This document shows, piece after piece, positions 5,727 through 64,000 of a stretch of DNA of 64,000 nt; position 1 is the first letter of the stretch, and each line of letters starts with the position of its first letter. The notes below the pieces were generated by a model, which saw nothing but the letters and a program-made list of their open reading frames with translations, was not told where the DNA came from and did not search any database. The DNA is from an uncultured Gammaproteobacteria bacterium (GTDB taxonomy: Bacteria > Patescibacteriota > Patescibacteriia > Magasanikbacterales > GWA2-37-8). The position numbers were made by a program, and so were the translations under genes. The stretch is from assembly GCA_964634875.1 (NCBI GenBank), contig CAZWKA010000003.1, forward strand, positions 16,591 to 80,590. The letters run 5' to 3'.

Positions 5727-6380
5727 CTAGCGGCGCCAGAAAGCCAGAAACATGAGGGCGAAGGGTGCGGTGCAGACCGCGCCGAGGAACACGAACGCGA
5801 CGAACCGTGCTCTCGGCGAGATCCGGCTGACGCGCCGGATGGCCTGGGTGCGGCGCTCCTGCTCGGGGATCAGCGTATATGGCTGCGTGCCGTTGCTGAT
5901 GGGGTGCCGCTGCGTGCCCTGCTCTGTGATGGGGAACAGGCCGGTCTCAGCCCCACGCAGAACCGCGAGCTGCATGGTTCCCTCTCTGGACAGGTCGAGT
6001 GTCGGGATCTCTTTGGTGTCGTCCTCGTCGCCCATGCTCTGCACCTCTTTGGTGGCGGTGAGCTGGCGCTCGAACGCGGCCAGGCGCAGGTTCAGCAGGG
6101 TCTTGTCCGGATCCTCCTCCAGTTCGTCAAGGAGGGGGGTGAGAGCCTGAAGCGGGGTGACAGACGAGGCCGGCGGCGGCACCTCAAGCGGCCGAGCCAA
6201 CAGTGTCAGCGCGTAGGCCTCCTGGTGGAAGCCGCGCGGGTTCGTGGGCGTACGCTCATCCCCGAAGAGAGGGGGTGTGCGGCTCGAGGGCGGGCTGTCG
6301 GCAGAGCTCTGCGGCGGGCACGACGGGTCAATCAGGGGCTTGGCGAAAAGGGGCGGAGTCAGACTGCTGTGCGTCTTCAT
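5727..6380 (-). CDS. proline-rich protein with C-terminal transmembrane tail anchor, encoded in a high-GC islet
   Basis: ATG at 6380 has GAGGT 6 nt upstream. The C-terminal stretch FVAFVFLGAVCTAPFALMFLAFW is hydrophobic. GC is visibly far above the flanks, and the opposite strand also shows long ORFs, as expected for GC-rich DNA. Confidence 0.45.
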   Translation of the reverse strand: MKTHSSLTPPLFAKPLIDPSCPPQSSADSPPSSRTPPLFGDERTPTNPRGFHQEAYALTLLARPLEVPPPASSVTPLQALTPLLDELEEDPDKTLLNLRLAAFERQLTATKEVQSMGDEDDTKEIPTLDLSREGTMQLAVLRGAETGLFPITEQGTQRHPISNGTQPYTLIPEQERRTQAIRRVSRISPRARFVAFVFLGAVCTAPFALMFLAFWRR

Positions 6381-6420
6381 GACTGTTACCTCGCTGGGTG
6401 GCAAAAAAGGTCGGGCATTG

Positions 6421-6469
6421 TAGCGGTGAAACAGTCTGATTAATAGCTTTATTAGACTGTTTCACCGCT
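6421..6469. repeat. 17-18 bp inverted repeat (hairpin) at the right edge of the high-GC islet
   Basis: AGCGGTGAAACAGTCTGAT ... ATTAGACTGTTTCACCGCT with one mismatch. Confidence 0.7.
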
Positions 6470-6685
6470 AGAACACTTTTTTAAGGAACAAAAAAACCTG
6501 CGGCTTTCGCCTACAGGATGCTCCATCCTAGCACATTTTTAGGGTTTTGTCAAGGGTGTTTTGGGGTATTTTGGCTAATTTTAGCTATTTTTATAGTTTT
6601 AGAGTAGTTCAAATACCACTATTTACTGTTGCGGGCAAACATTTTTAAGCAGTATCTTTTCTTGAGGCAAGAAGTTATTAGTGGT

Positions 6686-8171: not shown

Positions 8172-8753
8172 TTATCCCACTTGTCTTATCCAATCTCGGA
8201 TGATGCTTTGAATTCTCCCTATCTCTATTTCCGGCAATTCTCCGGTATGCATAATTATGTTTCTTGATAGTTCTAGGTCGTTAAAACGAGATGATATCCA
8301 GTGTTGATCGGGAAATAGATCGGAGAAATTCTCCCAATTAGCAACTATGATTTGAGCCAAGTTGCCAAACATTGTGTAACCTATTAACGAAGAGGATCGT
8401 GGAGTGTGGTATTTATTTTTCTCTTCTTTAGCCCTTAGATTTTCTGCTTGTTCCTGTACTTTCTTGGGAACATTGTCTTTCCACCATCCAATCCCAGCTC
8501 TCAATAAAAGTCGTTCTTCAATTAATTCTCGAACTGCGTTTTCCAAACAAAAGAACGATTGGTATGTCTTTGACATAAGACTAGCTCGATGTACTAAGAT
8601 TGGGCTGAAATCAGTTTCTTCCAAGACAGTGTCTTCCTCTTCTTTAACTATTCCCGAGTCAATCCCATCTCTCGTAAGTTTAATTAAGCTTTCGGTTGCA
8701 AGAATGCCATTAAAAACTAATTTTTTGAGCTGCTGTAAATTTGTTTTGTACAT
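8172..8753 (-). CDS. HEPN-domain protein (Rx4H motif), second gene of a two-gene cassette
   Basis: C-terminal LSRNIIMHTGEL matches Rx4-6H. Mostly helical composition. The local DNA is AT-rich, about 37% GC by eye. Confidence 0.55.
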   Translation of the reverse strand: MYKTNLQQLKKLVFNGILATESLIKLTRDGIDSGIVKEEEDTVLEETDFSPILVHRASLMSKTYQSFFCLENAVRELIEERLLLRAGIGWWKDNVPKKVQEQAENLRAKEEKNKYHTPRSSSLIGYTMFGNLAQIIVANWENFSDLFPDQHWISSRFNDLELSRNIIMHTGELPEIEIGRIQSIIRDWIRQVG

Positions 8754-8762
8754 AAGCCGGCC

Positions 8763-9389
8763 TTACTCAAATAAATTTTCTCTCAAGCTTTTAAAAATTG
8801 CACTATAGACACTTATATCAGTTGTTGCTGGCAAGTGTATTTCTATATTGTGATGGAAACTTAATGCTTTGGCTTCTTCCGGCGTTATCGGTTTTTGTGT
8901 TTTTTCATTTGTGCCACCACCTTTTTTTGTCTTCTCTTCTGTGGTTGGAGGAGGTGATATTTTAGGCGAAGCGCCAAATTTTGCTAGACCAACCAGTGCT
9001 TTATATGTCGCAAAGTATCTAGTGACCGTTTTCTCATCTTTGCCCGTAACTCGTGCCATTGCCCCTTTTATTGTATCTTCTGATTGCGTGTGCATCTCTG
9101 TATTGATTGCATAGATGTCTTTGTAGAGTTCAATTAATCTTTCCCCAATGACAAAAGGGTGGTCTTGTCGATCTTTCAGTCGGTCATAGTATTCTGTTGG
9201 AGCTCCGTCATCATTAAGTATATTAAGTCGTTTTAGAAGGGGGATTATTGCTCGGTCGTTAGAGCTTGCAAATCCCATTTGTTTAAGAAGTTCATTAGTA
9301 AATTTTTTTGGTTTTTCCGCAACTTTTATTTGTTCGAGAATAAAACTTATTTTATTGTTAGCGACCATGTAAGGGTATGTTTCTGGCAT
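8763..9389 (-). CDS. hypothetical protein, upstream partner of the HEPN gene (possible antitoxin/specificity partner)
   Basis: 208 aa. Stop lies 9 bp before the HEPN start on the same strand. No recognisable catalytic motif. Lys/Glu-rich middle region. Confidence 0.5.
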   Translation of the reverse strand: MPETYPYMVANNKISFILEQIKVAEKPKKFTNELLKQMGFASSNDRAIIPLLKRLNILNDDGAPTEYYDRLKDRQDHPFVIGERLIELYKDIYAINTEMHTQSEDTIKGAMARVTGKDEKTVTRYFATYKALVGLAKFGASPKISPPPTTEEKTKKGGGTNEKTQKPITPEEAKALSFHHNIEIHLPATTDISVYSAIFKSLRENLFE

Positions 9390-17862: not shown

Positions 17863-17898
17863 CTAATAGTACCAAGGTCGTTCGTAGAGTGTTTTGTA

Positions 17899-17937
17899 AA
17901 AAAATACCCAAACTTTTTAAGTTTGGGTATTTTTTTG
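17899..17937. terminator. bidirectional terminator hairpin
   Basis: AAAATACCCAAAC-tttttaa-GTTTGGGTATTTTT. Confidence 0.75.
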
Positions 17938-18006
17938 TGGCCACGAGTGGGGTCGTTAGCGCGCACGCCTCGTGGATACGTGAGTGGGCAGGGGAAAGCG
18001 GTCGAG

Positions 18007-18435
18007 CTAGTTGAGGGGCTCGAGGGCGATCGTGACCCAGCGCTCGCTCTCGAGCTGCTGCTGCCGGGGCTGTCGTAGCCGCTCCTGGCTTAGCCGAAAC
18101 GAGGCACGCAGGAACGTCTCGAAGGCTGAGGCGCGTAGCGGGTTCATCTTGATGTAGTAGCACCGCCACCAGTTGGGGTTGGCTCGGTCGAAGGTGGTCG
18201 AACGGGTCGTCCGGCTCTTCTGGACCATGACGAGGATGCGACGCCCGGGACCCTTGTCGTCTTCCCGAACGAGCTCGCCTTCGTCGTCGATGCCGACGAA
18301 TTCCCTGAGGACGCGCAGAATGTCCTCGTGGAAGATGGAAACCTGGCCTGGCCACCGTGCCGCTTCTCCGTCGGAGAGCTGGTGGACCAGGATACCGGGC
18401 TCAGCCACCTCTTTACTCGCTGCTTCGATCATCAA
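18007..18435 (-). CDS. hypothetical protein encoded in a high-GC islet
   Basis: ATG at 18435 with AAGGAGG 5 nt upstream. 142 aa with no recognisable motif. GC visibly about 60% versus low-40s flanks. Confidence 0.4.
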   Translation of the reverse strand: MMIEAASKEVAEPGILVHQLSDGEAARWPGQVSIFHEDILRVLREFVGIDDEGELVREDDKGPGRRILVMVQKSRTTRSTTFDRANPNWWRCYYIKMNPLRASAFETFLRASFRLSQERLRQPRQQQLESERWVTIALEPLN

Positions 18436-21452: not shown

Positions 21453-21716
21453 ATGGCCACTTCTTGTGCACATATTTCCGAAATTAAAGCTGTTACCCCG
21501 ATAACACCGGACGGCTGCACAGACTGTCTTACGACTGGTGACGAGTGGGTGGCGCTCCGTCTCTGTCTGTCGTGCGGAAATGTAGGTTGCTGTGATTCTT
21601 CCAAAAATAAACATGCGACCAAACATTTCGAGGCAACCGGCCACCCGATCATGCAGGCCTACCAAGAGGGCAAAGAATGGAAATGGTGTTATGTGGATAA
21701 GATATATGTACTATAA
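21453..21716 (+). CDS. zf-UBP-type zinc-finger protein
   Basis: The CAH...C..C....W..L..C..CG..GCC....H...H pattern matches UBP-type zinc fingers. Confidence 0.55.
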   Translation: MATSCAHISEIKAVTPITPDGCTDCLTTGDEWVALRLCLSCGNVGCCDSSKNKHATKHFEATGHPIMQAYQEGKEWKWCYVDKIYVL

Positions 21717-21850
21717 AAAAATAACCCCAGGGTTTCCTGGGGTTATTTTATAATGAAGACTGTCCTCACCCTGCCTGCATATGTACATATTCGGGCACGG
21801 TGAGATAAAGGGGACAGTCTTGAGTCTGTGGGGTTGGGGGGTCGTAGCGG

Positions 21851-22285
21851 TTAGCTGAATCGGGAAAGGTCAGTCGGGAACTCGGTCTCGATCACCAGCT
21901 GTAGCGCTGAAACAGAAACCGGTTTCACTAGTGTGCCTTTGATGCCTAGGTTTCGAAGATCCAGACGTTCATGTCCGGTCGCCAGATAGGCGGGAACGTG
22001 GGCGAGAGTGCTGTCAGCCCGCAGTTGCTCGACCAGCCAGAATCCATCGTGCACGGGCATAGAAGCGTCAACGAAGACGAGTTTAAGTCGTTCGCCGACT
22101 GCTCTCGCCTCGTCCAGGCCATCAGCCGCATTCGTGGCGCTGATGATGTGGTAACCTGCGCACAGGCCACTAACGAGCATCGAGAAGAGCTCGGTTGTGT
22201 CAGGGCAGTCATCAACAACCAGGATGACAGGTCGGCCTTCCGGCCTGCTGGATGTGGGGAGTGCTTCTGGAGTATGGGTCAGCAT
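21851..22285 (-). CDS. stand-alone response-regulator receiver (CheY-like) domain protein, high-GC islet
   Basis: ATG at 22285 with GGAGA upstream. VILVVDD...LVFVDASMP...LATG...K motifs. The ORF may extend to 22345. Confidence 0.55.
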   Translation of the reverse strand: MLTHTPEALPTSSRPEGRPVILVVDDCPDTTELFSMLVSGLCAGYHIISATNAADGLDEARAVGERLKLVFVDASMPVHDGFWLVEQLRADSTLAHVPAYLATGHERLDLRNLGIKGTLVKPVSVSALQLVIETEFPTDLSRFS

Positions 22286-22386
22286 GAGAATTCTCCGCGT
22301 GAAGTGGAATAGAGGTACCCTGTGCCTAAAACACTCTTTTGTCAAGCCCAGACCCCATTTCTTGAAAATAACGGGTGGCCAGGGTA

Positions 22387-22399
22387 GTTGCTAAGCAAC
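22387..22399. promoter_or_regulatory. 13-bp perfect palindrome GTTGCTAAGCAAC upstream of the NUDIX gene
   Basis: Seen directly. Same half-sites (GTTGC/GCAAC) as the triple repeat at 11.1-12.4 kb, but in inverted order. Confidence 0.35.
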
Positions 22400-22432
22400 A
22401 AATGATTTTATCTTGTACTAGGTTATATACGT

Positions 22433-22870
22433 ATGGAAATTACCCGCCATTTTACCGCCACCACATTTATTGTGTATAACAAAAAAGTACTTCTACATTT
22501 GCATAAGAAGTTGGGTATTTGGCTTCCGCCGGGCGGACATCTTGATCGTGACGAGCTTCCAGAGGTGGCAGCGCTGCGCGAAGTTAAAGAAGAAACAGGG
22601 CTTGATGTCGAGTTGTACCAGCCTCCGAACAGTTTTACTTTTAAAAGCGTGGGTGTGCTGAAGCAGCCCTTTTGTATTTTGCTCGAAGACATCAATCCGT
22701 TCCATCAACATATTGATTATAATTACCTGGCTCGGGCAACGACCGCTGAGGTAAGTGAAGAAGGAACGCAAAAGCATGGTATGCGCTGGCTCAGCCTTGA
22801 AGAAATAAATGTGCTTGATGCGCCGGATGATGTAAAAAATTTAGCAGCCGAGGCATTGGCGCTTTTGTAA
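22433..22870 (+). CDS. NUDIX hydrolase
   Basis: Nudix box GGHLDRDELPEVAALREVKEETGL. Confidence 0.8.
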   Translation: MEITRHFTATTFIVYNKKVLLHLHKKLGIWLPPGGHLDRDELPEVAALREVKEETGLDVELYQPPNSFTFKSVGVLKQPFCILLEDINPFHQHIDYNYLARATTAEVSEEGTQKHGMRWLSLEEINVLDAPDDVKNLAAEALALL

Positions 22871-23586: not shown

Positions 23587-24936
23587 TTGTTAGGTATGAA
23601 ACAGGATTTTTTTACAAATATTTGTTTACGTTTACTAGGGGTGAGCCTGTTAATTCTAGGTACTTTATTTTTTTGTGTTAATACCCGCGCTGCAGCCTCC
23701 CTTGTTCCGATTGAAGCTGATGATTTTGGTTTTTTGACTGTGTACAGTAGTTCAACCGTAACTGTTGCTGACGATGCTGCGACAGTTTTATATATAGTTG
23801 ATGGCGCCACTGTGGTCACGACTACACTGAGTATTAATGGTCAGGTAGATTTATATTTAACGCCCGGTGAGTATCAGTTGAGCCAGCAACCAAGTGATGG
23901 TTACACGCCAGTTTTTTTTGTTGATAGTGAAGATCCCGAAACTCCGCAGTGTGATACGTCCGGACGCATACTCGTCCCTGCTGAGCAGGGAGGGGTTCGT
24001 TTGGTCTGTAATATTTTACAAAGCATCTACGTTCCTACAGAAGAGGAAGTTCCGCCTTTTGTCCCAACCACCAGCACACTCCATATCAACCAGCTCGTTA
24101 TCAACGACAATGGTGACAACAAAACAGTTATAGATTTTCCTTTTGATGTGGCGATTGACGGGGTAACAACGACTTACCCTGGGGCGAGTACAACAACAAT
24201 TGTAAACCTCTCTGCAACGAGCACGTATAGTGTTGATCTTGCTGTGCCTGGCAGTTATGCTCGAACGCTTAGCGGGGATTGTTCGGGTACGAGTTCCGAG
24301 GTCGGCACTCTTGTAACGTGTACTATTGCTCTCGATGATCAGGAATTATTTTTGACCGATGTGCGGGCGGAAGCGGTTGATACGACATCAGTAAAAGTTA
24401 TGTGGACAACGAGTCATGCTGCTACGAGCCGGGTGATTTATGACGTGGTGAATCACGATGCCACGACTACGCCTCCATTGTATGGTTATGCTTTTACGAG
24501 TAATGAGCAGGGCGAGTTTGTTACAAATCACGAAGTGATTATCGCCGGTCTTGCTCCAGATACGCTTTATTATTTTCGCGCCGTCTCGCACGGCTCGCCA
24601 GAAGTAGTTAGTAACGAGGTGTCTGTTAAAACTATCGCCGCGACTGGCGGTGGACAGAATTTTAGCACGGGTGCGGGCGGGGGAGGGGTTGTTGCCCCGC
24701 CGCCAACAGCACCCACACCTGCTCCGGCACCAGTCCCAAGCGCACCGCAAGCAGTTTTAGGTGAAAAGATAGAAGTCACAGCTCCGCTGCCGAGCCCTAC
24801 TCCACAAGCCGTACTCGGTTTTCAAACTTTACCAGTAACTGGTGGGCGCGCGCCTTCACGTTTACCTGATGTAGCGGTGGACTGTATGTTATTAGGTGGC
24901 CTGCTCGTACTTCGAACCAGGCTCCTCGCTGAGTAG
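23587..24936 (+). CDS. LPXTG-anchored cell-surface protein (sortase substrate)
   Basis: Signal peptide. LPVTGG followed by a hydrophobic helix and an RTRLLAE tail at the C-terminus. Contains an FN3-like segment. Confidence 0.75.
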   Translation: MLGMKQDFFTNICLRLLGVSLLILGTLFFCVNTRAAASLVPIEADDFGFLTVYSSSTVTVADDAATVLYIVDGATVVTTTLSINGQVDLYLTPGEYQLSQQPSDGYTPVFFVDSEDPETPQCDTSGRILVPAEQGGVRLVCNILQSIYVPTEEEVPPFVPTTSTLHINQLVINDNGDNKTVIDFPFDVAIDGVTTTYPGASTTTIVNLSATSTYSVDLAVPGSYARTLSGDCSGTSSEVGTLVTCTIALDDQELFLTDVRAEAVDTTSVKVMWTTSHAATSRVIYDVVNHDATTTPPLYGYAFTSNEQGEFVTNHEVIIAGLAPDTLYYFRAVSHGSPEVVSNEVSVKTIAATGGGQNFSTGAGGGGVVAPPPTAPTPAPAPVPSAPQAVLGEKIEVTAPLPSPTPQAVLGFQTLPVTGGRAPSRLPDVAVDCMLLGGLLVLRTRLLAE

Positions 24937-31809: not shown

Positions 31810-31810
31810 C

Positions 31811-31874
31811 AAAAAACCATCCGCCATGCACTGAATACATTTTGTATACTCAGTGCATGGAGCGGACGGTTTTG
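31811..31874. terminator. long imperfect hairpin (about 28-bp stem) after secA, likely bidirectional terminator
   Basis: AAAACCATCCGCCATGCACTGAATAC ... GTATACTCAGTGCATGGAGCGGACGGTTTT. Confidence 0.6.
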
Positions 31875-31907
31875 TCCTTTTAGGAAAGGGTGGGCGTCTG
31901 CGTTGTT

Positions 31908-32312
31908 CTACGGTTCGATGATGTCGGGGTAGTCCGACAGGTCGCAGGGGTTACGACGGCTGAGCAGTTCAGGGGCGGGGTGATCCGCGCTCAAGTAGAA
32001 CATGAATTCAACGTCCTCGGGGCCGATGTGGAGCGCGACGTAACCGCTGATGCTACCAATGGTTTGTTTGGTATATACCTTGGTGTGTCCATGGTAGTCG
32101 CGGAAGGCGATCTTCGCTGGTACGCCGCGGTTGGCGAGGATGACGCAGGTCGGCCACTTCTTGGGATCAGTGACGCGCGGAGCATTGGGGTCGCCAGCGA
32201 CTCGGAGGGCTTCGCCGAGTTTGGGGTCAGTTGGCGATGTATCCTCCCAGCCGGAGCAGTTGCCAAACCCGAGACAGGTAGTGCCCAACAGTGCTAACAG
32301 GTGTTTGTTCAT
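31908..32312 (-). CDS. small secreted protein encoded in a high-GC islet
   Basis: ATG at 32312 with AAGGAGA upstream. Signal peptide MNKHLLALLGTTCLGFGNC. Confidence 0.4.
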   Translation of the reverse strand: MNKHLLALLGTTCLGFGNCSGWEDTSPTDPKLGEALRVAGDPNAPRVTDPKKWPTCVILANRGVPAKIAFRDYHGHTKVYTKQTIGSISGYVALHIGPEDVEFMFYLSADHPAPELLSRRNPCDLSDYPDIIEP

Positions 32313-32383
32313 CAAGTTTCTCCTTGCGCGAGGAATGTTTACACGGTATTGTCATCGTGTCAATATTGTTTGTTAGGTATAGT

Positions 32384-32973: not shown

Positions 32974-33465
32974 CTAGGTTAGGCCGAGAAGTCCGGCAAG
33001 GATATAGAGACCAAGTGCGACAGCGACACCGAGTAGCACAGCGTACAGCCTTGTCTGGCTTGGCATATGTTCAAACGGTGGCAGAATAACCTCTTCGGTG
33101 TTGTCTGCCGGATCGCGGGAGAGGGGCGGGATTGTCGGCGCCGTCGCCCGCTTGGTGAGCACTGTAGGTCGCATTGTCCGGGGAGGATAGATGGGTACCG
33201 GCACTGCCCCTAGTGGCCTCGTGTGCCTTTGGACTTCATAGACAGGGTCAGCATCGATGTTAGTCTGCCCAACTTCTACTTGAGGTGCTGGCGGGGGCGT
33301 AGGCAGGCCGAGGTAGTTGGCTTCGAGCACCGTGGGTTGCACCGGCAGTGCTGCGGGTGGTGGCTGGGGTGTCTCGCCAGGCCTGCCCAAGATGCGTTCG
33401 AGCAGGGTGGGCTGGTTACGCTTTGCGACCGGGGTAACTGGGGCTCGTGGTCTCAGTTTTGCCAT
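32974..33465 (-). CDS. proline-rich protein with C-terminal TM tail anchor, high-GC islet (paralog-like of 5727..6380)
   Basis: ATG at 33465 with GAGGA upstream. C-terminal LYAVLLGVAVALGLYILAGLLGLT. Pro-rich throughout. Shares the ..QRH..P..G.. segment and overall architecture with the 5.7-kb islet protein. Confidence 0.45.
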   Translation of the reverse strand: MAKLRPRAPVTPVAKRNQPTLLERILGRPGETPQPPPAALPVQPTVLEANYLGLPTPPPAPQVEVGQTNIDADPVYEVQRHTRPLGAVPVPIYPPRTMRPTVLTKRATAPTIPPLSRDPADNTEEVILPPFEHMPSQTRLYAVLLGVAVALGLYILAGLLGLT

Positions 33466-34349: not shown

Positions 34350-36398
34350 ATGCCTGCTAAACCTCAGCATTTCAGCAAGACGCCGACGCATTCCCAGGTA
34401 AAATCGAGACTGGCCGGTATTTTAATACTCGTTGTTTTTTGTGCAGTTGTGGCTGCGCCAGCCTACGCCAATAAAGGTATTGATTGGGTAAACAACACCG
34501 CCAACCTCGGGTTGCCCCGATTACCGGATAACGGTTACAACCTTGGTCTTGATCTCCAGGGTGGCGCACACCTCGTGTACCAAGCGAAAACAGATGCTAT
34601 TGCCGAAGCTGATAAAGCTAGTTCGGTTGAGGGTGTGCGTGATGTTATCGAGCGTCGTGTCCGTGGTGGTTTGGGTGTATCAGAACCGCTCGTCCAGACG
34701 ACTAAGGTTGGGAGTGATTACCGCATCATTGTTGAACTGCCTGGCGTGACGGATGTTAATCAGGCGATTAAGAGTATTGGCGAAACACCTGTTCTAGAAT
34801 TTAAAGAAGAAAATACTGCCCCACCACGGGAATTGACTGCAGCCGAAACAAAACAGCTCACTGATTTTAATAAAGCCGCTGATACAAAAGCGAAAGAAGC
34901 CCTTCGGGCAGTGCAGCGCGGCATGAACTTTGCTGAAGCCGCGGCTAAGTATAGTGAGGATGAAAAAACTAAGACCGCCGGCGGAGATCTAGGTTTTATT
35001 GATGAGACCGTCTATCCAGAATTATTTGCCTGGGCTAAAACCCACAAAGTAAATGAAGTCGGTAATGCTTTGGTTACGACGCCGACAGGTCTGAATGTCG
35101 TAAAAAAAGTAGCAGAAAAAGAGGGTGAAAAAGAAGTTACAGCTTCGCACTTGCTGATTTGTTTTGCCGGTGCCACGCGCTGTGATGACGCGCAATATTC
35201 TAAGGAAGATGCTCTTAAGAAAATCCAGGAAATTAAAGCAACGATTACTCCAAAAAACTTTGCCGAAAAGGCAAAAGAATTTTCGACTGAACCCGGGGCT
35301 GACCAGAGCGGTGGCGTACTTGGCACTTTTAAAAAAGGAGCTTTGGTAAAACCGTTTGAGGATGCTGTTTGGGATCAGAAAGTTGATACCATTTCTGAGC
35401 CAGTGGAAACGGAGTTTGGTTACCATCTTATCCATAAGACCGGTGAGGCAATCGCTAAGCAGTACCAGGTTGCTCGCATTTTGGTAGCCACTAAAACCAA
35501 GACAGATATCGTCCCACCAGCAGAACAGTGGAAATCAAGCGGCCTTACCGGTAAGCAGCTCGAACGAGCCGAGGTTACCCAAAACCAAATTACCGGAGAT
35601 ATCCAGGTAAGCCTTAATTTTGATGATGAAGGTTCTAAGTTATTTGCTGATATTACCGGCCGTAATGTGGGGAAAGCAGTAGCTGTTTTCCTTGACGGTG
35701 AAATTATCAGTGCCCCGGTTGTTAACGCGGCAATTACCACGGGGAGTGCGGTAATTACGGGTGGGTTTAGCTTGACTGACGCTAAGCTTTTGGCGCAGCG
35801 CCTTAATTCAGGTGCGTTGCCGGTACCAGTTGAGCTCCTCAGCCAGCAAACCGTGGACGCTACGCTTGGTGCTGATTCGCTTGATAAGAGTTTCCGTGCT
35901 GGTGTCTTTGGTTTGATTGCAGTTATGGTCTTTATGATTCTTTATTACCGCTTACCAGGCCTTTTGTCCGTACTATCCTTGGCTTTCTACGCCCTCCTGA
36001 GTTTGGCGGTATTCAAATTGATGGGTGTAACATTGACGCTCTCTGGTATTGCTGGGTTTATTCTTTCCATCGGTATGGCGGTTGACGCTAATGTGCTTGT
36101 ATTCGAGCGTCTTAAAGAAGAGTTGGCTGCGGGTCGAACGCTTAAGTCAGCTACTGAAGAAGCCTTTATTCGTTCGTGGCCTTCAATTCGTGATAGTCAT
36201 ATTACCGCCCTCATCAGCTGTGTCTTCTTGATTTGGTTTGGTACTGGGTTTATCCAAGGTTTTGCCGTTATCTTGGGAATTGGTACTTTAATTAACCTGT
36301 TTACCGCCATCACGGTAACGAGGACAGTCATGCGGTCGGTTTTCCCTTTCCTTAATGAAAAAGGAAATATTCTCTTTTTAGGATATAAAAAAGATTAA
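34350..36398 (+). CDS. secD: protein translocase subunit SecD with two inserted parvulin-type PPIase domains
   Basis: The SecD N-terminal TM helix and C-terminal 6-TM RND-like domain are present. Two parvulin signatures are inserted in the periplasmic domain: AGGDLGFIDETV and SGGVLGTFKKGALVKPFEDAVW. Confidence 0.8.
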   Translation: MPAKPQHFSKTPTHSQVKSRLAGILILVVFCAVVAAPAYANKGIDWVNNTANLGLPRLPDNGYNLGLDLQGGAHLVYQAKTDAIAEADKASSVEGVRDVIERRVRGGLGVSEPLVQTTKVGSDYRIIVELPGVTDVNQAIKSIGETPVLEFKEENTAPPRELTAAETKQLTDFNKAADTKAKEALRAVQRGMNFAEAAAKYSEDEKTKTAGGDLGFIDETVYPELFAWAKTHKVNEVGNALVTTPTGLNVVKKVAEKEGEKEVTASHLLICFAGATRCDDAQYSKEDALKKIQEIKATITPKNFAEKAKEFSTEPGADQSGGVLGTFKKGALVKPFEDAVWDQKVDTISEPVETEFGYHLIHKTGEAIAKQYQVARILVATKTKTDIVPPAEQWKSSGLTGKQLERAEVTQNQITGDIQVSLNFDDEGSKLFADITGRNVGKAVAVFLDGEIISAPVVNAAITTGSAVITGGFSLTDAKLLAQRLNSGALPVPVELLSQQTVDATLGADSLDKSFRAGVFGLIAVMVFMILYYRLPGLLSVLSLAFYALLSLAVFKLMGVTLTLSGIAGFILSIGMAVDANVLVFERLKEELAAGRTLKSATEEAFIRSWPSIRDSHITALISCVFLIWFGTGFIQGFAVILGIGTLINLFTAITVTRTVMRSVFPFLNEKGNILFLGYKKD

Positions 36399-53822: not shown

Positions 53823-54998
53823 ATGTTTTTTTCCAAGCCAAAGTCTTTTTTAGGCATTGATTTTGGAGCTGGCGGCATTAAGCTTGTTGAGCTCAAACAA
53901 GAAAAGAATCGTCCGGTTCTTTTTACGTACGCAATTGCTCTTGAATCACAGGACATCCATCGTGTTTTGAAGCCGGGCGCTGAACGAACGCTTGGGGATC
54001 TGTTGAAAGAAAAAACCTTACCGGAAACGCGTCCGGCGAGCCAGGTTCAGACTGAAACAGTTGCCGCCCCAGAAGACGGCCTCGATGCGGCGAAGATTGC
54101 ACGTTATGCAGCGCTTATCCGATCGGTTTGCAAACAGGCGCGTACCGTGAGCACGACGGCGGTAGTCAGTTTGCCGGTGTCAGCAGTGTTCCACACTATT
54201 GTTAATTTGCCGATTGTTAAAAAGGATGAGATTGATGCTCTTTTAAAAGCCGAGATACGCAAATTACTGCCGTATAAGCTGGAAGACACCGCCCTTGATT
54301 ATGAGCTTTTGCCGCACGCACCTGATGCTAAGGTGCAGACGGTTTTAGTCAATGCGGTTCCGAATAGCATGGTTTTGTTTTTTTCCAAGGTTTTTCAGCA
54401 GGCTGGTCTAAAGTTACATGCTTTAGAACCTGAATCAGTAGCTCTGGCTCGTTCGCTTATTGGCCGCGATACAGCGCTCACAATGATTATCGATATTGGT
54501 GCGGAGCGAACAAATTTTTTTATCATTGATCAGACCGTCCCGATTACGCACCATAGCATCGAGCTCGGGGGCAACAGAATAAATAAAAACCTGGCGAACA
54601 TGCTCGGAGTTGATGATGGTGTGGTAGAACGCCTAAAAGAAGACCTTTTTAATTACCTGCTCCGGTACCCTGAAACAGCTGGTATTGGTCGTGAAAAGTT
54701 TTTAGCATTGTTTACGACTGTGGTTGATCCGATAATGAAAGAGATTGCCTATAGTTTCAACTTGTATCTGCGGCAAACCTGGAATGAAGCCAAGCGTCCG
54801 GAAAAAATTATTTTGACTGGTGGCGGCGGGTTATTTCCTTTTTTAGCTGATTTTATTAGTGAAACCTTTAAGATCAAATGCTATATTGGTGACCCTTGGG
54901 GACGCGTGGTCTATCCCGACACTTTAAAGCCCGTGCTGCGTGATATCGGGCCACGTATGGCGGTTGCGATTGGCCTTGCGCTCAAGAATCTGGTATAA
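53823..54998 (+). CDS. pilM: type IV pilus assembly protein PilM (actin-like ATPase fold)
   Basis: N-terminal LGIDFGAGGIKLVEL. Overall actin/Hsp70-like pattern with a C-terminal ILTGGGG. Confidence 0.75.
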   Translation: MFFSKPKSFLGIDFGAGGIKLVELKQEKNRPVLFTYAIALESQDIHRVLKPGAERTLGDLLKEKTLPETRPASQVQTETVAAPEDGLDAAKIARYAALIRSVCKQARTVSTTAVVSLPVSAVFHTIVNLPIVKKDEIDALLKAEIRKLLPYKLEDTALDYELLPHAPDAKVQTVLVNAVPNSMVLFFSKVFQQAGLKLHALEPESVALARSLIGRDTALTMIIDIGAERTNFFIIDQTVPITHHSIELGGNRINKNLANMLGVDDGVVERLKEDLFNYLLRYPETAGIGREKFLALFTTVVDPIMKEIAYSFNLYLRQTWNEAKRPEKIILTGGGGLFPFLADFISETFKIKCYIGDPWGRVVYPDTLKPVLRDIGPRMAVAIGLALKNLV

Positions 54999-55050: not shown

Positions 55051-55431
55051 ATGGACAAAGATAAAGCTCATATTTTGCTGGTAGAGGATGATGTGTTTTT
55101 ATCGAATATCTATCAGAAAAAGTTTGAAATGGAGGGGTTCAAGATCAGTACTGCAGACAATGGTGAAAAAGGTTTGGCAGATGCAAAACGCAAGAAGCCA
55201 GATATTATTTTGCTTGATGTCCTGCTGCCCAAGCTCGATGGTTTTGCTGTGCTTGAAAAATTGAAAGAAGATCCGGCGACAAAAGAAATTCCTGTCATCC
55301 TCCTGACCAACCTCGGCCAGAAAGATGATGTAGAAAAAGGCTTAGAATCTGGTGCGGCTGATTATTTGATTAAAGCCCATTTCAAACCATCGGAAGTTGT
55401 GGATAAGGTGAAAAAAATATTGCAGCAGTAG
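55051..55431 (+). CDS. single-domain response regulator (CheY/PilH-like)
   Basis: ILLVEDD ... DIILLDVLLPKLDG ... LTN...K. Confidence 0.8.
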   Translation: MDKDKAHILLVEDDVFLSNIYQKKFEMEGFKISTADNGEKGLADAKRKKPDIILLDVLLPKLDGFAVLEKLKEDPATKEIPVILLTNLGQKDDVEKGLESGAADYLIKAHFKPSEVVDKVKKILQQ

Positions 55432-55502: not shown

Positions 55503-55925
55503 ATGAAAAGACAAGGTTTTACTTTGATCGAATTACTCGTTGTTATCGCGATTATTGGACTTTTGTCCACGCTCGCGGTCGTCGCCCTTGGCTCAGCCAA
55601 AGTTAAGGCCAGAGATTCCAAACGGCTTTCGGATTTAAAACAACTCCAGACAGCGCTCGAACTATATTATACTGACCAGAATAATTATCCGACCGGTACA
55701 GCAGTTACGCTTGGTGCTGGCATGTACGAATGTCTCAACGCCTCCGGTTGGGCTGCGATTGGTTGTACTAACCCGTATATGGGTAAAGTTCCATCAGACC
55801 CTAATGGTAGCGCGTATGTATATACCTACGGGACAAATACATATACCATTACTGATACGCTCGAAGGTACGGTTAACGGTTTGACTGGTGCTATCCAGCT
55901 GACCCCTTCAGGTATTGGGCAATAA
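55503..55925 (+). CDS. type IV pilin (prepilin with class III signal)
   Basis: MKRQGFTLIELLVVIAIIGLL is the canonical G/FTLIE prepilin leader. Confidence 0.85.
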   Translation: MKRQGFTLIELLVVIAIIGLLSTLAVVALGSAKVKARDSKRLSDLKQLQTALELYYTDQNNYPTGTAVTLGAGMYECLNASGWAAIGCTNPYMGKVPSDPNGSAYVYTYGTNTYTITDTLEGTVNGLTGAIQLTPSGIGQ

Positions 55926-56034
55926 TTTTTAACACTGAAAAATCCCTTCCAACATTCCGAGGAGGGATTTTTTTGTTTTCCTTGTCTTTTAATCTTTTCT
56001 TTACTATACTACCGTTAGTTTTTACTTCTTCCTT

Positions 56035-56826
56035 ATGGAATTTTTTCTGACCAACTGGTTCACGTATGCCTTTGTTTTTTTCTGTGGCGTGATTTTGGGC
56101 AGCTTCCTTAATTCATGGATTTGGCGGGCGTGGGAAAATGTCCGGATCATTATGGGTCGTAGTATGTGTGTGCATTGTCGGCGTACTTTGGCGTGGTATG
56201 AGAATGTGCCGATCGTGAGTTTTTTGGCTCTTGGTGGTAAATGCCGAACGTGTTTACATCCAATCCCCAAGCATTATCCGTTAGTAGAAATAGCTATGGG
56301 AGTGCTGCTTACCCTTGTTTTTGCCTACCATGTTAGTCTGCCTGTTTTTAAGGTCGGGCTTTTTTGGCGCGACATTTTTTTTACTACGTTGCTCGTGGTT
56401 ATTTTTGTTTATGACGCTTTGTATATGATAATTTTGCCGCGCGTTGTTTGGCTCGGCGCAGTTGTTGGTTTTGTTTTTAATTATTTTGTTTTAGGCATAC
56501 CACTTCGTTCGTTGATTATAGGAGCTTTGATTGGTGGTGGTATTTTTTTGATCCAGTTTATTATTTCCCGGGGACGGTGGATTGGCGGGGGTGACGTGCG
56601 ATTGGGGTTTATGATGGGTGTGTGGCTTGGTTACCCGTCGATAGTCGTCGCCCTTTTTATCGCGTATGTTGTTGGGGCTATATGTGGTGTGCTGCTTCTT
56701 GCGTTTAAAAAGAAAACCTGGCAGGCTCAAATCCCTTTTGGAACCTTTTTGGCTATCGGTACTCTGGCGAGTCTGTATGGGGGAACGCACATTATTCAAT
56801 GGTACGTCGGTCTTATTGCTGGGTAG
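56035..56826 (+). CDS. pilD: prepilin peptidase (A24 family)
   Basis: CVHCRRTL...GKCRTC zinc cluster. Multi-TM. Asp-containing motifs. Confidence 0.85.
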   Translation: MEFFLTNWFTYAFVFFCGVILGSFLNSWIWRAWENVRIIMGRSMCVHCRRTLAWYENVPIVSFLALGGKCRTCLHPIPKHYPLVEIAMGVLLTLVFAYHVSLPVFKVGLFWRDIFFTTLLVVIFVYDALYMIILPRVVWLGAVVGFVFNYFVLGIPLRSLIIGALIGGGIFLIQFIISRGRWIGGGDVRLGFMMGVWLGYPSIVVALFIAYVVGAICGVLLLAFKKKTWQAQIPFGTFLAIGTLASLYGGTHIIQWYVGLIAG

Positions 56827-62740: not shown

Positions 62741-63681
62741 TCAGTAGTCCCGCAGGTCGCGGGTTTCGCGTCGCCAGATGCGGCGCTGGTCGCTCCGGTG
62801 CTGCCCGCTCGTGAGGCAGCCATGAAGCAGGTTGCGTCTGCTCCAGACGAAGCTCCGGAACTCTTGCTTCGTCATCTTCATGGACCGACGGAGCTTGATG
62901 ATGTTTCGGTGCCGGACTTCGTGGCCGCGGTTGTAGGACAGGTTGATGTGCTTCTGCTCTTCATCCTTCGAAGACGAATCAGAAGCGATCTTCTTGTCCC
63001 ACTTCGCTTCGAGGAGCTCGAGAGGGGTCAGCTCATCGAGCGGGTGCTTGAGGTACCGCTTCTCGAGCCACCGGACTTCGCGAGTCGATCCCTCTGCCTC
63101 CTTGCGGTGGCTGAGGTAGGCTCGCTGTTCCGCCTTGGTGAGGAGCTCGTGCTCCTTGTCCGTGATGCGCCCGGCGCACTTCAGCTGGTCGGCCTTGACC
63201 ATGGTGAGTCCGCCGATCGTTGGCCAGTCACCCCCTTGGATCTTGGCGAGTAGATCCTGGACTTCGGCGAAGGCTTCGTCGAGCACCTCGGCCCAGCGTG
63301 CCGCTTCCTCGGCCTGACGCTTGCGACTCGCTTCCTCGGCCGCTCGCTTGCGGTCTGCCTGTGCCGCCGTGATCGCGGGGTAGGCGGCTGTGGCTTGTTC
63401 GAGCCAGGTTGTAGTGGGCTGGTAGCTGTCGAGCACGCGGTTGATGAACTCCATGATCTCGTGGTCCACGTACTCGAGCTGCTTGAGCTCCTCGATCTTC
63501 CACTTCAGCTGCTGTGCTTCACGCCCGAGCCGGCGGCGCTCCAGTTCCCCGGAGCGCTCCAGTTCCATGCGCTGTTCAGCGGCCAGGCGCGCCTGTTCAG
63601 CATGCTTCGACCGCATGGTGTAGCTGCGGCCGCGGCTGAAGTAGGGTTGAGGTTCCATGACGATCTCGATCTTGCGTCCCA
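62741..63681 (-). CDS. coiled-coil-rich hypothetical protein encoded in a high-GC islet
   Basis: ATG at 63681 with GGAGAGA upstream. About 60% GC by eye. The long Arg/Glu/Ala-rich helical region suggests a coiled-coil. No catalytic motif recognised. Confidence 0.4.
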
Positions 63682-64000
63682 TGTGTCTCTCCTTGTGTGT
63701 ACGGTTGCCCGCACTCACGAGGATTGACTGGTGGGAATGGGTCAGGTCGTTCGTGCGGTTGTTCAAACAAAAAAGACTAACGTTGGAAACTCATTGGTCG
63801 CCTCCTTGTAAAAGTGCTCGTCGTACCGGACTATCCCGGTTGTTTCGACGGTTTTTGCTCTGTGGTTAGCCAAAGGGAAAAAACCGCTAAAACAAGGCAC
63901 GGAACAAGCCAGTATAGCACAAAAAACGGGTTTTGTCAACCCCCTTTAGGAAGCTCCTGTTACAGTTTTATTGAAGAAATTCGTTGATTTTTTGTTCGAT

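Follow-up and report, generated by a model that had tools for sequence, protein, structure and literature searches.

We analyzed a 64,000-nucleotide stretch of contig CAZWKA010000003.1 (assembly GCA_964634875.1, positions 16,591 to 80,590 of the forward strand), hereafter the window, which comes from an uncultured bacterium placed by GTDB in the Patescibacteriota. Our subject is a minus-strand gene encoding a stand-alone receiver protein, which we call REC and which an earlier reading of the sequence (the original prediction) had singled out as a horizontally acquired islet in high-GC DNA with a structured flank. REC converges on a plus-strand gene for a zf-UBP protein, and the 134 nt between the two genes contain two structures: a long hairpin in the 3' untranslated region (UTR) of REC and, next to zf-UBP, an intrinsic terminator. 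Upstream of REC lie a ribosome-binding site and a conserved block that contains a putative promoter. These features are collected in Table 1, together with the most GC-rich genes of the window, to which we return below.

Table 1. Features of the REC locus and GC-rich genes of the window.
Feature	Position	Strand	Basis or remark
Stand-alone receiver (REC) gene, 144 aa	21851-22285	-	Pfam Response_reg (PF00072)
Start of REC 3' UTR, C-rich, unstructured (CCGCUACGACCCCCCAACCCCACAGACUC)	21822-21850	-	Unpaired in REC-strand fold
Long imperfect hairpin, REC 3' UTR	21756-21821		Folds on both strands; inverted repeat I10
Two-way intrinsic terminator, 14-bp stem, A-run on one side and T-run on the other	21718-21749		Terminator scan and folds
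Convergent neighbor, zf-UBP protein, 87 aa	21453-21716	+	Pfam PF02148, 54 bits
Ribosome-binding site GGAG	22293-22296	-	Read from sequence; 7 nt before ATG at 22285
Conserved upstream block with putative promoter	22304-22348	-	39/45 bases same as sister lineage
GC-rich islet genes (six)	5727-6404, 18007-18435, 21851-22285 (REC), 31908-32312, 32974-33465, 62741-63766	-

The REC product is identical across all 144 residues to the public protein P0001. Its match to the Pfam receiver profile scores 42.1 bits against a cut-off of 30.2 and covers residues 21-131 of the protein and positions 1-109 of the 111 in the profile, which leaves no space for another domain and bears out the original prediction of a stand-alone receiver at 21851-22285 without an output domain. 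The conserved phospho-acceptor aspartate, which had been proposed as a check, is present as D73, together with the acidic pair D25/D26, T103 and K121-P122, and these catalytic residues are invariant in P0001-P0003. A search of NCBIfam returned no family over its cut-off for REC. An AlphaFold model of the protein (predicted local distance difference test score, pLDDT, of 84; predicted template modeling score, pTM, of 0.79) features a CheY-like sheet with helices 1, 2, 3 and 5, preceded by a disordered N-terminus of 20 residues, and the best structural matches of this model are CheY, DivK, the SLN1 receiver and Spo0F. The region in which helix 4 would be expected (residues 104-114) is coil in the model, which was built from an alignment of three sequences. 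Among solved structures, REC is closest in sequence to the Mycobacterium tuberculosis PhoP receiver (PDB 3R0J/9JI3), with 39 bits and E = 6.5e-9 over residues 13-114. In CheY, the span between the counterparts of T103 and K121 (T87 and K109) is 22 residues; in REC it is 18, which leaves the link between strands 4 and 5 four residues short. The position of the aromatic switch residue is occupied by Thr118, and by Ala in the ortholog described below, and the two lineages end in the same seven residues, TDLSRFS. As judged from these features, REC is a divergent member of the CheY-like receiver superfamily, of the stand-alone type.

When REC was searched against 5.8 billion proteins, only P0002, at 69% identity, and a weak match at 39% were returned. 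P0002 is encoded in a sister lineage (L001) at a locus with the same gene order as the window, in which genes for DsbA, a lipoprotein and zf-UBP converge on REC and REC diverges from a sortase gene. The start and stop codons of REC are both kept in this ortholog, and the ATG at 22285 aligns with the ortholog start. Proteins that flank REC are 44-94% identical between the window and the sister lineage, a range in which 69% is typical; the zf-UBP protein, in the same position, is 84% identical. Nonsynonymous and synonymous divergence between REC and its ortholog (dN 0.24; dS about 2.5, which is saturated) resemble those of the neighbors, and at four-fold synonymous sites REC and its neighbors alike show random-level identity (0.23-0.37). 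We found no mobility gene, integrase, transposase, tRNA or direct repeat bordering REC. Based on the syntenic ortholog, the promoter block and homologous hairpin that the two lineages share (see below) and the neighbor-like divergence, we conclude that REC has been inherited vertically at this locus, under purifying selection, from at least the time when the sister lineage split off. The gene is intact by the same comparisons, and it has the look of an expressed one. This history contradicts a recent horizontal arrival, as the name of islet had implied: the ortholog sits at the same site with a conserved promoter block and hairpin core, and mobility genes are absent from the surroundings. The original prediction had itself offered a best match within the gene's own lineage, combined with a cognate kinase encoded nearby outside the window, as evidence to the contrary, and P0002, in a related lineage at the same locus, supplies the first half of this.

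Beyond the ortholog, relatives are remote. An exhaustive HMMER search of 1.84 billion representatives yielded only multi-receiver proteins, whose scores are summed over several stretches, and among 185,579 species genomes scanned by pattern, no REC relative exceeded 44% identity, with matches scattered across many phyla. A metagenome scan anchored on zf-UBP returned two unrelated high-GC contigs only. No donor lineage could be identified from the protein, HMMER and species-genome searches. With an EVE-domain neighbor as query, we found two further lineages (L076 and L078), and protein identities give the tree ((window, L001), (L076, L078)); still remoter relatives reached through the same neighbor had lost synteny. 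For the two assemblies of L076 and L078, GCA_964540825.1 and GCA_964510495.1, whose loci reach only the NUDIX gene and end short of the REC site, no REC ortholog is on record, and other proteins of both assemblies are in the database that was searched. This NUDIX gene (22433-22870, plus strand) lies between REC and the sortase gene in the window and is present in L076 and L078; it is absent from L001, in which REC and sortase are divergent neighbors 119 nt apart.

The GC content of REC is 0.57, and that of its third codon positions (GC3) is 0.60, compared with means of 0.475 and 0.483 for the genes of the window. Adjoining genes have a GC content of 0.41-0.48, which agrees with the original prediction insofar as REC is higher than its neighbors. 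However, the wording "far higher" was an overstatement, as REC ranks only 7th in GC (z = 1.6) and 8th in GC3 (z = 1.1) among the 63 genes. The excess is therefore genuine but moderate to mild. Furthermore, GC3 is 0.58-0.60 in the window and the sister lineage alike, and given vertical inheritance since the two split, the GC excess of REC is no fresh foreign signature.

Downstream of REC, the structured segment that had been noticed proved to be the hairpin at 21756-21821, with the arms and palindrome described for it. Its outer stem pairs AAGACTGTCC (21756-21765) with GGACAGTCTT (21812-21821), its inner stem is CTCACC/GGTGAG, and its apex is formed by the perfect palindrome ATATGTACATAT (21779-21790). 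Folding of the RNA, which the original prediction had suggested, gave stable structures for 21715-21850 on both strands (-52.8 kcal/mol, z = -7.5 on the REC strand; -59.1 kcal/mol, z = -5.3 on the plus strand), and 0/200 shuffles folded as well. The hairpin is among the three longest local inverted repeats of the window; a 12-nt perfect palindrome is by itself not unusual, with about 16 expected in 64 kb. No U-tract of its own follows the hairpin, and it was not classed as a terminator. The terminator scan flags 21718-21749 for the minus strand, and the A/T flanks of the stem suggest that it is able to serve both convergent genes; the terminator that had been assigned to zf-UBP is thus confirmed and is common to REC. 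Fold z-scores for the hairpin region are strong in both lineages. The hairpin core GTCCTCACYCTG...CAGRGTGAGGAC is kept in the sister lineage with one compensatory change of C-G to T-A, and one mismatch of the window is a pair there. The apical part differs between the lineages, with GTAC retained at its center, and in place of the outer stem the sister lineage has a separate hairpin formed locally. Taken together, these comparisons are suggestive of a hairpin conserved across two lineages. Within the window, there is no further copy of the core, which might have marked it as a repeated element, and no repeat family that links the GC-rich islets. A search of Rfam with 21650-22450, at the gathering threshold and at E <= 5, returned only sub-threshold chance matches (e.g., hairpin-shaped microRNA models).

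As a separate observation, the half-motif GACTGT-N(1-2)-TCACC builds both the REC hairpin (21758-21770) and a hairpin at 6418-6473 (6425-6466). It has 3 hits in the window compared with 0.07 expected, although it was spotted post hoc and the order of the arms is reversed.

The conserved block upstream of REC contains a putative promoter that consists of a perfect -35 box, TTGACA (22340-22345), a 17-nt spacer and a weak -10 box, CAGGGT (22317-22322), which matches a -10 consensus at just positions 2 (A) and 6 (T); we infer the promoter from this arrangement. Closer to the gene, the CGGAG of the ribosome-binding site is kept in the sister lineage. The TTGACAAAA box occurs at 6 sites in the window compared with 1.6 expected, and it stands before cold-shock and desaturase genes and four GC-rich genes, which suggests that it is a house promoter box. 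The REC block is not special in its conservation, as promoter blocks in other intergenic regions are conserved to the same degree, and a second copy of the block was not found in the window.

In Pfam scans that took in all 63 plausible genes of the 64-kb window, no HisKA, HATPase_c or Hpt domain was found, and kinases are likewise absent from the gene tables of the relatives' syntenic loci. The original prediction that REC has no kinase nearby therefore held across the full window. Its view that an orphan receiver is unusual for a reduced genome (where "reduced" is a description drawn from gene content alone) is weakened by a second stand-alone receiver at 55051-55431 on the plus strand (87 bits), which has the native GC content of 0.40. 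Its presence suggests that orphan receivers are not exceptional in this genome. This second receiver is flanked by pilM (53823-54998) and by a type IV pilin and a prepilin peptidase (55503-56826), a PilH-like placement.

Considering these results together, we think it likely that REC is a lineage-restricted single-domain response regulator that has been kept by vertical descent and is equipped with its own promoter, a 3' stem-loop and a two-way terminator shared with zf-UBP. Asp73 would be phosphorylated by a donor encoded outside the window, whether a histidine kinase, a phosphotransfer protein or a small phosphodonor. Because REC has no output domain, it would then exert its effect by contacting other proteins, or else serve as a relay or sink for phosphate. 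The short, non-helical link between strands 4 and 5 and the Thr or Ala at the aromatic switch position suggest that signaling probably proceeds without the classical switch of helix 4, strand 5 and helix 5, and the C-terminal tail TDLSRFS, invariant in the two lineages, may serve as a contact site. Transcription would start at the house-style promoter with its perfect -35 box and weak -10 box, pass through the conserved 3' UTR stem-loop and end at the two-way terminator, with the stem-loop most likely shielding the 3' end of the mRNA and helping to insulate the convergent genes.

Several points weigh against this interpretation. The window revealed no kinase, phosphotransfer protein or partner for REC, and both phosphorylation on Asp73 and expression of the gene are predictions from sequence. 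The -10 box of the upstream block is poor, and a consensus promoter scan called no promoter there. The covariation of the hairpin amounts to one pair in two independent sequences, and it is from its position that the stem-loop derives its proposed role. Finally, the apparent loss of helix 4 comes from a structural model with three aligned sequences behind it.

Vertical descent since the sister split leaves room for an earlier origin elsewhere, in which the common ancestor of the window and sister lineages took REC from a higher-GC donor and the gene acquired its native promoter later. We regard such an old horizontal gain as possible but less probable than not having occurred, and it is compatible with the favored explanation for all later history. 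The GC and GC3 values of REC relative to the window means would fit a donor of this kind, as would a best solved-structure match to the PhoP receiver of M. tuberculosis, a high-GC actinobacterium. The tree of the four lineages accommodates a single gain on one branch, and no ortholog is on record for GCA_964540825.1 and GCA_964510495.1; however, the loci of these two lineages that seem to lack REC end at or just inside the NUDIX gene. Against an old gain, no relative outside the clade is more than 44% identical, the matches span many phyla, and REC has no mobility gene, tRNA or flanking repeat beside it. Foreign GC3 should also have decayed at synonymous sites that are saturated, yet it is equal in both lineages. 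An old horizontal origin nevertheless stays plausible because gene gain of this type occurs in the window: the GC-rich minus-strand gene 31908-32312 is clearly a lineage-specific gain, as the gap between SecA and EVE that it occupies is 3 nt in three other lineages. A recent arrival of REC, with the structured flank as an insertion relic such as an attachment site or the end of a mobile element, is by comparison very improbable. The GC content of REC above that of its immediate neighbors and the long inverted repeat at one border are what such an event might leave, but the hairpin flanks just one side of the gene and has no second copy in the window, the vicinity is free of integrase, transposase and tRNA genes, and the gene, promoter block and hairpin core occupy the same site in a lineage with saturated synonymous sites.

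Other alternatives concern function. The FATGUY class of Rec-only proteins is defined by the motif PFxFATG[G/Y], a missing helix 4 and the absence of a strand 5 aromatic residue (PMC9981736). As a phosphorelay intermediate of this type (MrrA, SdrG, Sma0114, CpdR), REC would pass phosphoryl groups back and forth between kinases and phosphotransferases instead of switching an output face. Three traits point toward the class: a strand 4 sequence of PAYLATGH (PVYLVTGH for the ortholog), a helix 4 that is not predicted and the lack of the strand 5 aromatic. Both Phe residues of the motif are absent, however, and the window encodes no Hpt protein or HWE/HisKA2 kinase. The sequence TGH after strand 4 is also common in ordinary receivers of the FixJ/NtrC type. 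We consider it unlikely that REC functions in this manner. Slightly more doubtful still is another role for the hairpin, either as a palindromic DNA site bound by protein, such as an operator, or as a small RNA in its own right, in place of a 3' structure on the mRNA. In support of such a role, the inverted repeat is conserved at the DNA level with the central GTAC in both lineages, one T-G position pairs on the plus strand only, and the half-motif GACTGT-N(1-2)-TCACC recurs in the 26-bp hairpin at 6418-6473, with the post hoc count given above. On the other hand, the comparison has just two sequences to draw on, the sequence of the apical part differs between them, the promoter scan gives no promoter from which a transcript of its own could start and no Rfam match comes near threshold. 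We retain the interpretation of REC as a vertically kept single-domain regulator with a 3' stem-loop on its mRNA.

The neighbors of REC provide context. We treat the convergent zf-UBP gene as context only, as any functional link to REC would be hypothetical. The divergent operon of sortase, LPXTG surface-protein and CAP genes is the only conserved neighbor that hints at a process, in which a part for REC would be equally hypothetical. The gene that follows sortase (23587-24936, plus strand) encodes an LPVTGG sorting signal near the C-terminus and a fibronectin / purple-acid-phosphatase-N domain, and its product is the fastest-diverging conserved neighbor (44-50% identity).

REC is also one of a wider set of GC-rich genes. 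The minus strand carries 26 of the 63 genes of the window, among them all eight that are highest in GC. Six of the GC-rich genes, REC included, are treated here as islets (Table 1), and each sits behind a house-style TTGACA promoter. The other five have GC contents of 0.59-0.67, with GC3 of 0.81-0.84 in three, in a genome of 47% GC, and none of the five has a Pfam match. Two of these islets, the one beside GSDH and the one that follows EVE, recur in the other lineages and are GC-rich there as well; their proteins can hardly be aligned, but the 3' UTR, or the N- and C-termini, are recognizably homologous. In the islet gene beside GSDH, the 3' UTR forms a stem (CCACGAG...CTCGTGG) ahead of a two-way terminator, as at the 3' end of REC, and this stem is conserved between the window (17880-18010) and L005 (7300-7400). 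The gene at 31908-32312 encodes a lipoprotein, has its own promoter and fills the SecA-EVE gap (31810-32383); it is absent from L076, L078 and L079. At least three of the six islet genes are in the same position and GC-rich in lineages with saturated synonymous sites, which indicates that high GC persists long after arrival and that simple decay toward genome composition is no explanation for it. The product of 62741-63682 (minus strand), a charged, coiled-coil-like protein of 313 residues with GC3 of 0.81, had no relative but itself among the 5.8 billion proteins.

One speculative reading, to which we assign a small chance, is that REC belongs to a class of at least six GC-rich, fast-evolving and mostly domainless minus-strand genes that were captured from high-GC donors or kept GC-rich locally. 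If so, the class would reflect recurrent capture from high-GC donors (e.g., a host) or a gene-specific process that holds the GC of lagging-strand genes high, and in either case REC would be a captured signaling module.

Additional features of the window lie apart from REC. Upstream of 5727-6404 (6400-6560, minus strand), a promoter (TTGACA..TGCTAGGAT) leads directly into a hairpin that resembles a terminator and has a U7 run, and the 26-bp perfect-arm hairpin at 6418-6473 comes next; the arrangement may represent a leader, an attenuator or a small RNA. At 8172-9389, the minus strand carries a low-GC gene pair (0.37-0.38) for a Swt1-like HEPN protein and a DUF5343 protein, a possible toxin-antitoxin or defense module. 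SecD (34350-36398, plus strand) contains inserted PPIC-type rotamase domains, an architecture that is the same in all related lineages.

Overall, REC is real but ordinary: one more divergent single-domain response regulator, old at its locus, and one more orphan receiver in a very large family. At least two receivers are thus maintained in a small, gene-dense genome of Patescibacteria-like gene content, with no kinase gene found in the window. The moderate GC excess and the hairpin are no evidence of recent transfer, as the sister lineage shows that REC is old and domesticated. The GC-rich minus-strand genes are a more curious lead than REC itself, and if they are derived from a high-GC host or held GC-rich by a local process, they would bear on how genes are gained and retained in small symbiont-like genomes.

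Compared with known systems, REC most resembles the single-domain regulators CheY, DivK and Spo0F, with which it shares the five catalytic residues, the lack of an output domain and, as predicted, the fold. It differs from them in several respects: their sequences are only 22-28% identical to it, partners for chemotaxis, the cell cycle or sporulation are missing from its neighborhood, no kinase lies within the 64 kb, the link between strands 4 and 5 is short and non-helical, Thr or Ala replaces the aromatic switch residue, and the protein has a disordered N-terminus of 20 residues and a conserved C-terminal tail. Relative to PhoP and the OmpR/PhoB family, REC is without the winged-helix DNA-binding domain, and the match between the two receivers ends before the dimer face of helix 4, strand 5 and helix 5 that defines activation in that family. 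The FATGUY hubs MrrA, SdrG, Sma0114 and CpdR are stand-alone proteins like REC and likewise have xATG[H/Y] after strand 4, a degenerate helix 4 and no strand 5 aromatic; however, the class is alphaproteobacterial, its partner types were not seen in the window, and the motif in REC is partial, in that P, A/V, T and G fit and both Phe residues are missing. We rejected membership of REC in this class based on the departure from the motif and on sequence and structure rankings in which REC showed no specific affinity to Sma0114, SdrG or MrrA. The 3' end of REC has its own parallel in the two-way terminators of convergent genes that are accompanied by a stabilizing stem-loop upstream in the 3' UTR, as here too a GC-rich stem is flanked by A- and T-runs and one of the transcripts carries a second stable hairpin. 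In contrast to such arrangements, a stabilizing role of the extra stem-loop of REC is only putative, and this stem-loop is without a U-tract of its own.
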